This document shows, piece by piece, positions 698 to 17,257 of a stretch of 23,101 nt of DNA (the first letter of the stretch is position 1; each line of letters begins with the position of its first letter). The translations under genes were made by a program, and so were the position numbers. The notes under the pieces were generated by a model. The model searched no databases. It was not told the DNA's origin and was given only the letters and a program-made list of their open reading frames with translations. The stretch is taken from IMG/VR virus record IMGVR_UViG_2698536506_000012, one strand, 5' to 3'. Source of the stretch: a virus (taxonomy: Duplodnaviria > Heunggongvirae > Uroviricota > Caudoviricetes).

Positions 698-1060
698 GGG
701 GCTGATTCTGGATTCGACGGGATTTGCGAAACCCAAGGTGCATGCCGAGGGGCGGTTGGCCTCGTAAAAAGCCGCAAAAAATAGTCGCAAACGACGAAAA
801 CTACGCTTTAGCAGCTTAATAACCTGCTTAGAGCCCTCTCTCCCTAGCCTCCGCTCTTAGGACGGGGATCAAGAGAGGTCAAACCCAAAAGAGATCGCGT
901 GGAAGCCCTGCCTGGGGTTGAAGCGTTAAAACTTAATCAGGCTAGTTTGTTAGTGGCGTGTCCGTCCGCAGCTGGCAAGCGAATGTAAAGACTGACTAAG
1001 CATGTAGTACCGAGGATGTAGGAATTTCGGACGCGGGTTCAACTCCCGCCAGCTCCACCA
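698..1060 (+). ncRNA. ssrA: tmRNA (SsrA, 10Sa RNA), mature 363 nt
   Basis: Starts GGGGCTGATTCTGGATTCGACGGG and ends GGTTCAACTCCCGCCAGCTCCACCA, giving the tRNA-like acceptor/T-arm with encoded CCA. It contains the internal tag reading frame. Confidence 0.95.
787..819 (+). other. tmRNA tag-peptide reading frame (ANDENYALAA, stop)
   Basis: GCA AAC GAC GAA AAC TAC GCT TTA GCA GCT TAA read directly from the sequence; this is the canonical E. coli degradation tag. Confidence 0.9.
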
Positions 1061-3295: not shown

Positions 3296-3877
3296 TTAAC
3301 TGACAGGTTGCTGCGGCCACTCAATTTCCGGCGCTAAAGATGTATCAACCCGGTTCAACAACACCCGATACTTCTTCCAGGCCGCCAGCAACGAGGTTTC
3401 TTCCTCCGTTGCAATTTCCAGATCTGCAGCATCCTGAAGCGGTGAAATATGCTCACTGGCTACCTGCATCAGGCTGTTTTTTGTTTCTTCCGCCTCCCGG
3501 ATCCGGAACAGTTTTTCTGCTTCCGTATCCTTCACCCAGGCTGTGCCGTTCCACTTCTGATATTCCCCTCCCGGCGATAACCAGGTAACATTTTCCGGTA
3601 ACGGACCAGGTTCAGAAATAAATAATGCATCCCCTGATGCCACGTCATAGACGGTTTTACCCCGATGGTCTTCAACGAGATGCCACGATGCCTCATCACT
3701 GTTGAAAACAGCCACGAAGCCAGCCGGAATATCTGGCGGTGCAATATCGGTACTGTTTGCTGGCAGACCTGTATGAGGTGGAATGTATGCATCACCTTCA
3801 CCAATAAATTCATTGGTTCCGGCCAGCAGATTATAAATTTTTATGGTCCGTGGTAGTTCACTCATTCTGAATGCCAT
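3296..3877 (-). CDS. tfa: Tail fibre assembly protein Tfa (193 aa)
   Basis: [54 protein letters not shown]... closely matches lambda Tfa as I recall it. ATG at 3877 overlaps the stf stop (TAATG). Confidence 0.93.
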
Positions 3878-15760: not shown

Positions 15761-16456
15761 ATCTCATTCCTCCCGATATACCTTCCCCCAGATGCATCAG
15801 CTCTTCATCCGTGCGTTCAGGGATCACCCTGTCATCCGTAACCAGACTGAAATCATCCGCCGGAATACGTTCACCGGACACCATCTGAACCATCAGCGAC
15901 TTCAGTGTGGAAATCTGTGCATCCAGCCAGATATCCCCGAAACTCTGCTTCCTGAAGAAATCCCCCCATTCGCCCAGTTCTGACGCTGACATTTCTGATA
16001 ACATCCGCCGCCAGTCTGCCCGCCGGAACTCACGGGCAAGCTGCATCACAAACTGCATCTCCCGCGTCAGGACTTTTCCGGTGTCAGAGGAACCTGTTCA
16101 CCGTTCTGAACATCACCGGTGGAGACCGGCATACCACTCAGGGATAAAACCAGACTGCCCCCGTCGCCAAGCGCGTCATAAGACCAGGTGTTTTTTACAT
16201 CCTCATTCAGCGCATCCACATCCTGTGACGGGTCCGTATTCCACATTGACCGGGAAACCAGCCAGGCGTTGATATCCATCCCCATACGCAGAAATTCAAT
16301 CTGACGTTCAGCCACCGGCATGGCATCATCCAGGGCGTCAAACTCAGCCGTCCGTTTCTGGACAAACGACAGATATTCCACCCGCTGCAGCCCGGACAGT
16401 TCTGTCATAACCACAGACTGATCACCGTAATTAAATGTGTCCTGTTTCAGAAACAT
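15744..16456 (-). CDS. Tail assembly chaperone G-T (fusion made by a programmed -1 frameshift near the end of G)
   Basis: A 104-codon ORF (15744-16058) lies in the -1 frame relative to G and overlaps its 3' end. That frame is open back to a stop at 16100-16098, and the arrangement sits between V and H as in lambda G/GT. Confidence 0.7.
16067..16456 (-). CDS. G: Tail assembly chaperone G (about 129 aa)
   Basis: ATG at 16456 (MFLKQDTFNYGD..., like lambda G MFLK...) with a GGAGAAGG ribosome-binding site; stop TGA at 16069-16067. The ORF-track start at 16477 is a TTG. Confidence 0.85.
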   Translation of the reverse strand: MFLKQDTFNYGDQSVVMTELSGLQRVEYLSFVQKRTAEFDALDDAMPVAERQIEFLRMGMDINAWLVSRSMWNTDPSQDVDALNEDVKNTWSYDALGDGGSLVLSLSGMPVSTGDVQNGEQVPLTPEKS

Positions 16457-16473
16457 AACCTTCTCCGCAAACA

Positions 16474-16498
16474 ACAAAAAAACCCCGGCATACCGGGG
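16474..16498 (-). terminator. Stem-loop plus U-tract immediately downstream of V
   Basis: On the - strand: ACCCCGG-TATG-CCGGGGT followed by TTTTTTTGTTGTTT, lying between the V stop (16517) and the G ribosome-binding site. Confidence 0.6.
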
Positions 16499-16516
16499 TA
16501 CAAACAGACCGTCTGA

Positions 16517-17257
16517 TTAACCACCATTAACGGTAATACTGGCCACTGCGACCTGTGCGCCACCCGCTGTCATCCCGACAATCGAGGTGCTTCCCGCTTT
16601 CACACCTTTCACCGTGGCCACCATGCCACTCAGTGTAACCGTGGCGATCTCAGGAGAGGATGACGCCACACTCACCGTTTTATCAGATGCATCTTCCGGT
16701 ACTGTGCTGAATGTCAGCGTCGTCGTTGCCCCCACCCTGACACTGGCAGATGCCGGTGCCACCGTCAGACCGGTCACGCTAACAAGCCCGGTGCCTTCCT
16801 CTGCCAGATACGGACGTCCCACACCGCTGATTTTCACAGTGCGGGTCATCACCTCTTTAGAGGTAACAGTTTTCCCCAGCGAGCTCAGCCAGCCACGGAA
16901 AACATCAACAGTGCCGTTGGGATATTTGATACGAAACGCACAGACTTCACCAGAGTCGAACAACTGAACCAGTTTTTTCTGCCCGCTGTCACCCGGACGC
17001 CAGGCCAGCGTCGCCGAAGTATCACCGACGGATTTTTGCCCCTGGGTTGTCGTTTTCCAGTCAGCATTTTCATCATCGAGATAATCGTCATCTTCCGCAT
17101 CTGCAGTCATTTCGCCCGGCTGTAAATCCTTCACCATCGCAAGACGCAGCCAGTCAGTATCTGACAACGGAGCCGCAAAGGCGTCCCCTTTGCCGGTATA
17201 CATCCAGAACGTCGTCCCCGCGCCCTTCGTTTTTTCCAGTGGATTCGGTGTTGGCAT
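16517..17257 (-). CDS. V: Major tail protein V with a C-terminal Ig-like (Big_2-type) domain (246 aa)
   Basis: ATG at 17257 with AAGGAG 6 nt upstream. MPTPNPLEKTKGAGTTFWMY...NGTVDVFRGW matches lambda V. The ORF-track start at 17275 is a TTG. Confidence 0.92.
   Translation of the reverse strand: MPTPNPLEKTKGAGTTFWMYTGKGDAFAAPLSDTDWLRLAMVKDLQPGEMTADAEDDDYLDDENADWKTTTQGQKSVGDTSATLAWRPGDSGQKKLVQLFDSGEVCAFRIKYPNGTVDVFRGWLSSLGKTVTSKEVMTRTVKISGVGRPYLAEEGTGLVSVTGLTVAPASASVRVGATTTLTFSTVPEDASDKTVSVASSSPEIATVTLSGMVATVKGVKAGSTSIVGMTAGGAQVAVASITVNGG

Follow-up and report, generated by a model that had tools for sequence, protein, structure and literature searches.

A terminator-type hairpin between tail genes V and G of a lambdoid prophage: a recurrent but dispensable element and candidate conditional terminator

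Terminators inside lambdoid late operons have already been recognised, and the closest known relative of the element described here, a hairpin between tail genes V and G, is a homologous one annotated in two phages. GenBank lists a 'rho-independent terminator' between the major tail protein gene and a gpG-like gene of mEp460 (NC_019716: 8751-8774), and one more in Ayreon, at its homologous V-G site (MF807953: 8742-8782). Both annotations are computational and not experimental, and both records carry a second terminator after the capsid/protease gene. The post-procapsid terminator of the P22-like phage L is likewise predicted, and lies at a module boundary in an antiterminated late operon with a single promoter (10.1101/2020.10.05.325894). 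In that work, partial termination or the blocking of spurious transcription was proposed for such internal terminators, and their roles were described as not known. Phage L differs from the present prophage in being a podovirus of the P22-like group with other flanking genes, and the two show no sequence relationship.

Protective hairpins at the 3' ends of intercistronic segments, such as those of the Rhodobacter puf operon and the REP sequence of E. coli malEFG, form another point of comparison. They follow a gene that is needed in excess, and differential stability of the mRNA segments is the proposed outcome; in a study cited in PMC6938266, Dar and Sorek are said to have described programmed operon decay of this kind in 2018. 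As a rule, the puf and malEFG elements have no U-run or consist of repeated REP units, whereas the V-G element is single-copy and has a full terminator U-run.

Two systems outside the lambdoid phages also bear on the question. The T-phi terminator of T7 resembles the V-G element in lying directly past the most abundant structural gene; it is leaky, with less RNA downstream (PMC6938266). It differs in acting on T7 RNA polymerase, in its 12-bp stem (PMC10325885), in having no Q-type antitermination, and in that its function has been shown experimentally. The conjugation operon of pLS20 contains several ordinary terminators that are passed only by polymerase antiterminated by conAn; experiments on pLS20 showed that such terminators, together with antitermination, keep spurious transcription down and permit differential expression (PMC8191782, PMC10325885). 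However, pLS20 is a Gram-positive plasmid, and its antiterminator consists of RNA plus protein instead of Q.

How does the present locus compare? The window, that is, the whole stretch of 23,101 nucleotides analysed (IMG/VR record IMGVR_UViG_2698536506_000012), comes from a lambda-like (lambdoid) E. coli prophage, and every late gene in it lies on the minus (coding) strand. The 2 kb that were tested are 100% identical to a prophage of strain C5 that is located next to ssrA. The tmRNA gene ssrA also adjoins the prophage end in the window (698-1060, plus strand; Rfam, 295.8 bits), which makes ssrA the insertion site of the prophage. Near ssrA and the prophage end, the hairpin at 1185-1208 has a terminator score on both strands. 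The strain C5 prophage has a Q-family antiterminator gene some 16 kb further upstream, on the same strand, and the genes from lysis through tail fibres are all co-oriented. This gene order, together with Q, is that of a standard lambdoid late operon; to judge by the Q-family gene and the shared orientation, the operon that holds the V-G element has a processive antiterminator. The V-G junction is composed as follows, all on the minus strand:

16517-17257, minus: gene V, major tail tube protein, 246 aa (Pfam Phage_TTP_12, E=2.6e-66, plus Big_2)
16519-16517, minus: V stop codon TAA
16516-16500, minus: 17-nt spacer from the V stop to the stem, UCAGACGGUCUGUUUGU
16499-16482, minus: hairpin ACCCCGG-UAUG-CCGGGGU, 7 bp of which 6 are G-C (fold and scanner match)
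16499-16493, minus: 5' arm, ACCCCGG
16492-16489, minus: loop, UAUG
16488-16482, minus: 3' arm, CCGGGGU
16482-16476, minus: run of 7 U, the first U doubling as the stem-closing base (T-score 5.53)
16475-16467, minus: GUUGUUUGC, between the U-run and the Shine-Dalgarno sequence
16466-16459, minus: Shine-Dalgarno sequence of G, GGAGAAGG, 2 nt upstream of the AUG
16456-16454, minus: AUG of G
16067-16456, minus: gene G, tail assembly chaperone, 129 aa (Pfam Phage_TAC_2, E=1.2e-37; gpG in PGAP)

On the identical strain C5 prophage, PGAP names V a 'phage tail tube protein', and Pfam backs the gene names of an earlier, preliminary description of the window: T (Phage_tail_T), E (Phage_cap_E) and FI (Packaging_FI), as well as U, J and Lom. 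At the far end of G, the coding sequence closes with ...CCG GAA AAG UCC UGA (16067-16090, minus), and the T open reading frame (16058-15744) is in the -1 frame; GGAAAAG in the window occupies the place of the GGGAAAG G-T frameshift site of lambda.

The preliminary description had placed an intrinsic-terminator-like element between the V stop and the ribosome-binding site of G, and on the minus strand it is found there, in a gap of 60 nt, with 17 nt separating the element from the V stop and 19 nt from the G AUG. The range given for it (16474-16498) marks the right site and omits the outermost base, 16499. The stem followed by seven T is also present in the sequence, although one of the seven is the base that closes the stem, and stem and U-run can be counted as 7 bp plus 6 U or as 6 bp plus 7 U. 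On the plus strand the hairpin has no U-run following it; the element is therefore unidirectional, and a bidirectional terminator can be rejected for the same reason. A scan detected no promoter-like site in or near the U-V and V-G junctions. An internal promoter for G was rejected because the spacer has no such site, and a moron terminator because the upstream gene is the core gene V, with no promoter of its own nearby.

Is the element more than a chance fold? The hairpin folds at -13.3 kcal/mol and accounts for 77% of the ensemble. In the shuffle control for the isolated hairpin, 4 of 200 shuffles fold as well, and the 71-nt context taken alone is unexceptional (z = -1.47), since short GC-rich stems readily re-form in shuffled sequence. 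The exceptional feature is the combination of the hairpin with an abutting U-run: the d'Aubenton-Carafa score of d = 50.5 is the highest on either strand of the whole 23-kb window, and among 1000 dinucleotide shuffles of the 60-nt spacer none reaches 50.5, while 22 exceed 0. The built-in terminator scanner lists the site, one of 31 terminator-like sites in the window against 13.5 +/- 3.4 expected, the strong ones being on the coding strand. The stem is GC-rich and within about 5-11 bp, the loop is within 3-8 nt, a U-rich tract abuts the 3' side of the stem, and the whole lies past a stop codon in non-coding DNA of the transcribed strand. By its anatomy the V-G element is a canonical Rho-independent terminator-type signal, and that it is real and non-random is confirmed.

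Rfam gave no match for the element at gathering thresholds, and permissive thresholds returned only sub-threshold matches, to unrelated sRNAs at their terminator ends (9-18 bits, where 38-100 are needed). The motif occurs once in the window, with looser matches at chance level, and all 16 exact copies of the hairpin in IMG/VR sit at V-G junctions. A REP/BIME element, a dispersed repeat and a mobile cassette were rejected on these grounds.

The Shine-Dalgarno sequence of G, GGAGAAGG, is mostly paired with codons 2-3 of G (UUUCUG) in the prediction (16440-16470, minus). Its predicted probability of being unpaired is 0.22 in the window, 0.16 in the related L006 type and 0.52 in lambda; such pairing could damp the translation of G. 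A role of the U-run as an anti-Shine-Dalgarno sequence for G is unsupported, as with a context longer than the 71-nt fold the Shine-Dalgarno sequence pairs with codons 2-3.

The homologous elements of mEp460 and Ayreon read GCCCCGG-UUAU(U)-(C/U)CGGGGC followed by U6. They share with the window the CCCCGG/CCGGGG core, the 4-nt loop, a run of six T and the 60-nt spacer. They differ in the closing pair, which is G-C and not A-U, and in the loop, which is UUAU or UUAUU and not UAUG; the flanks of the spacer have diverged. Across ten homologous junctions the five central stem pairs are invariant, and the sixth, loop-proximal pair is kept in seven of the nine junctions that have letters there (five G-C, two G-U). 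The closing pair shows a single compensatory switch from A-U to G-C within the clade. A run of T5-T7 is kept throughout the window/mEp460 clade with the sole exception of a Citrobacter junction (L091, TTTG). Stem and U-run are thus conserved while the flanks diverge. One compensatory pair and five invariant ones are too weak for covariation to serve as proof of structure. The stronger argument is the convergent recurrence of unrelated stems at the same position.

Could the hairpin have no selected function, being a passenger carried along neutrally or left over from mosaic recombination where the V and G modules meet? Compared with mEp460-type prophages (L018/L002), V is 86-88% identical and G only 65-67% (16067-17257), a contrast that places a mosaic recombination joint at or near the V-G spacer; the weak covariation and the lack of the hairpin in lambda and many relatives are compatible with a passenger as well. 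Against this, the shuffled spacers never attain the observed score, the exact IMG/VR copies keep to V-G junctions and are not dispersed, nearly all long spacers of the operon hold such hairpins, and in five or more lineages unrelated stems recur in the V-G slot, without exception on the coding strand. The absence of any selected function is very improbable.

Terminator-like hairpins are found elsewhere in the late operon. A stricter scan (d'Aubenton-Carafa d>0, both strands of the 23-kb window) returned ten sites, all but one of them on the coding strand. Eight of the nine coding-strand sites are intergenic, falling between D and E, E and FI, V and G, I and J, J and lom, lom and stf, and tfa and the next gene, and at the prophage end. 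A d>0 hairpin occurs in seven of the nine operon spacers of at least 40 nt; the 40-nt S49-D and 52-nt FI-FII spacers have none. Besides the V-G element, the sites include the following:

21930-21915, minus: weak site inside the S49 peptidase gene (d>0)
20127-20109, minus: D-E terminator-like hairpin (d>0)
19049-19031, minus: E-FI element, AGGCGGGA-UAU-UCCCGCCU followed by UUUUCUUUAU (d = 37.6)
10385-10372, minus: I-J terminator-like hairpin (d>0)
6931-6916, minus: J-lom terminator-like hairpin (d>0)
6238-6219, minus: lom-stf terminator-like hairpin (d = 40), which fits a moron terminator for lom
3289-3274, minus: terminator-like hairpin between tfa and the next gene (d>0)

A full-length Rfam match to IS009 (206.9 bits; 3336-3534, minus) lies within the tail-fibre-assembly gene (3296-3877).

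The preliminary description had seen in the V-G element the same architecture as after E, and from this a repeated design for differential expression. The repetition holds and reaches well beyond the E and V pair, to the eight intergenic hairpins. The likeness to E-FI is partial: the order of stop, hairpin, U-run and Shine-Dalgarno sequence is common to both, but the stem starts 4-5 nt past the stop of E as against 17 nt past that of V. The two elements thus have a common outline, and their designs are not identical. The E-FI hairpin, which follows the major capsid gene, folds at -14.4 kcal/mol (z = -5.2); so close to the stop, its stem would be occluded by the terminating ribosome (PMC4824070). 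Lambda has a hairpin at the corresponding site, AUGGCCC-UUCG-GGGCCAU followed by UGUUUCUCU, with a poor U-run (d = 10). At E-FI, in lambda and the window alike, a GC hairpin separates the stop of a structural gene of very high copy number from the next Shine-Dalgarno sequence, and both stems begin 2-5 nt past that stop, in contrast to the 17 nt at V-G of the window.

How widespread is the V-G element? From IMG/VR and one-genome-per-species contigs, 160 related loci were gathered and reduced to distinct V-G junctions. Of 59 representative junctions sampled, two (L115 and L120) were dropped as lambda-vector chimeras. The 57 usable junctions comprise 25 with a hairpin and U-tract, 11 with a hairpin only and 21 with neither, where the Shine-Dalgarno sequence stands alone. 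In the class with a U-tract, the stems are of at least five unrelated kinds, which fall on separate branches of the V-protein tree:

CCCCGG: window/mEp460 clade
GGCUCC: Kluyvera
GCCCC, with a 6-nt loop: Ewingella
GCCACA(C): Providencia and Buttiauxella
CCCGCC: Edwardsiella

GGGGC-UUCG-GCCCC, found in Buttiauxella, Kosakonia, Atlantibacter, Trabulsiella and Leclercia, is an example of a hairpin alone. The distance from stop to stem is 15-20 nt in the junctions with a U-tract and mostly 4-5 nt (range 0-9) in those with a hairpin only.

A set of contigs (L109-L120, L124 and L127, from the genome contigs) consists of short or low-coverage sequences filed under unrelated taxa such as Neobacillus, Pseudomonas, Shewanella, Kitasatospora and Chromatium. 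They match the query as well as lambda V does (56-57% identity), and 14 loci have the very same 15-nt V-G junction as lambda. L115 and L120 are 100% identical to lambda V, and L115, L117 and L120 are chimeric just past the start of G. These contigs appear to be lambda or lambda-vector contamination of the assemblies.

The lambda V-G junction, which the preliminary description had proposed for comparison, offers no parallel, being only 15 nt long and free of a hairpin. Since lambda and 20 other junction types lack the hairpin, the V-G element is dispensable, and its effect must be modest or replaceable by translational control; on the junctions sampled, it is recurrent but dispensable.

Across 58 representative loci, the scan assigned 97 sites to the coding strand and 18 to its complement. 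The coding-strand sites form two pile-ups: 26 directly follow the V stop, and 53 lie some 2.5 kb upstream of it, past the capsid gene. Of 59 loci, 54 have a post-capsid site, including 20 of the 21 loci without a V-G hairpin. The post-capsid site is thus near-universal, in contrast to the V-G site, which occurs in only about 60% of junction types. Post-capsid hairpins (for example, L003 2164-2181 and L001 1877-1911 in related loci) fall into two families. UGGCCC-UUCG-GGGCCA, 3-10 nt past the stop, belongs to heads of the lambda-E type, and GCCCGUAAGGGC followed by U7, 19-31 nt past the stop, to mEp460/HK97-like heads.

Do these hairpins act on transcription or on the RNA that has been made? 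The V-G element could be purely a determinant of mRNA stability, an exonuclease barrier or decay boundary for V mRNA with negligible termination and an incidental U-run. Hairpin-only variants fill the V-G slot in other lineages, where 11 junction types have a GC hairpin without a U-run. In addition, post-capsid hairpins of the lambda-E type stand only 3-10 nt past the stop, with a poor U-run in lambda, and a stop-proximal stem with a poor U-run fits a post-transcriptional role better than termination. Formation of terminator hairpins is prevented by Q-loaded RNA polymerase (PMC9388147), and terminator hairpins raise the abundance of the upstream transcript about 2.2-fold (PMC11696848). The window clade, however, conserves the U-run as well as the stem. 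That the abutting T5-T7 run was retained in all clade variants but one while adjacent spacer bases diverged argues for selection on terminator function, and the unrelated hairpin families at V-G, at least five in number, all have U-runs. A stabiliser also needs an RNA 3' end nearby, for which termination is the simplest source. A role in stability alone is therefore rather unlikely.

What would a terminator do in an operon that is antiterminated? The features to be accounted for are the anatomy of the element, its non-randomness and strand specificity, the recurrence of its position in unrelated lineages and the upstream Q gene. The reading favoured here, with a probability of about 0.6, is that the V-G hairpin is a conditional terminator, which would stop unmodified RNA polymerase, be read through under Q, and then serve as a protective 3' hairpin. 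Termination, readthrough and stabilisation at V-G are steps that we infer from sequence. RNA polymerase without the Q modification, arising from spurious initiation in the lysogen or from complexes that were never loaded with Q or have lost it, would terminate at the hairpin, which would keep the tail assembly genes G-T-H-M-L-K-I-J silent. During lytic growth, Q-loaded polymerase from pR' would pass, perhaps with a small loss. Once transcribed, the GC hairpin would block 3'-to-5' exonucleases on transcripts ending at that point or cleaved further along, and V-containing mRNA would outlast the mRNA of the distal tail genes. Such protection accords with the higher upstream mRNA abundance that terminator hairpins bring about (PMC11696848). 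The net outcome would favour V over downstream genes whose products are needed in few copies; lambda V is present at roughly 200 copies per virion.

Conditional termination is favoured on three grounds. With Q as a nozzle at the RNA exit channel, terminator hairpins cannot form (PMC9388147). Processive antitermination bypasses stems of 7-11 bp, and only unusually long stems resist it (PMC10325885). There are also seven other hairpins in the operon, and if each terminated efficiently, little transcription would be left for the distal genes. A block on stray transcription of this kind was proposed for phage L (10.1101/2020.10.05.325894) and demonstrated for pLS20 (PMC8191782). By analogy, Q-dependent readthrough of the V-G hairpin would be expected from its 7-bp stem (PMC10325885) and from the mechanism of Q (PMC9388147). 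The position of the stem can be held against the reading: at 17 nt from the stop it is within the range of ribosome-suppressed termination. Termination efficiency is 0.12-0.8 at 17-18 nt from the stop, depending on the trailing ribosome, and reaches its maximum beyond 27-30 nt (PMC4824070). As regards transcripts, the literature yielded no direct mapping by Term-seq or RNA-seq of a lambdoid V-G terminator; a Term-seq paper on EHEC covers tR'/StxS only.

Alternatively, the hairpin might be a leaky attenuator at which Q-modified polymerase also stops, at a substantial fixed fraction, so that transcription steps down between V and the low-copy tail genes. Such a device would be expected directly past the tail gene of highest copy number, where the hairpin is, and a sister element follows the capsid gene; T-phi after capsid gene 10 of T7 is an analogue (PMC6938266). 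Weak or leaky terminators tune phage operons (PMC9163698), and partial termination is among the roles offered by the authors of the phage L study (10.1101/2020.10.05.325894). Yet Q-type antitermination is processive and bypasses ordinary terminators of 7-11 bp (PMC10325885, PMC9388147), and if a substantial fraction of transcripts were lost at each of the seven further hairpins of the operon, too few would reach J and the tail-fibre genes. Moreover, lambda reaches the same virion stoichiometry with no V-G hairpin. Attenuation of Q-modified polymerase is accordingly judged quite unlikely.

The differential expression proposed in the preliminary description may come about through termination. 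Any effect on expression may instead be post-transcriptional, because the operon lies downstream of a Q gene and Q-loaded polymerase ignores such hairpins (PMC9388147). One tentative extension, with the balance of probability against it, is that the slot after V and after the capsid gene is a convergent 'expression boundary' of lambdoid phages, acting mainly after transcription and partly setting virion stoichiometry. If this were true, a bare Shine-Dalgarno sequence, a GC hairpin alone and a hairpin with a U-run would be three interchangeable solutions, and the boundary of programmed mRNA decay could not be erased by Q antitermination. Sampson et al. (PNAS, 1988) reportedly put down the relative expression of lambda late genes mainly to translation initiation; under the expression-boundary idea, stoichiometry would come partly from segmental mRNA stability and not from translation initiation alone.

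For the purposes of annotation, the V-G element is an ordinary predicted terminator. What the present analysis adds is modest and comparative: unrelated hairpins have come to occupy the V-G slot time and again, in three design classes, and lambda has none there. Relatives such as mEp460 and lambda therefore form natural pairs with and without the V-G hairpin, which can be set against the near-universal hairpin after the capsid gene. The hairpin, should it act in the way proposed, would help to explain how prophage tail genes are kept silent against stray transcription, and how hundreds of copies of V and few of the distal tail proteins are obtained from one antiterminated transcript of 20+ kb.
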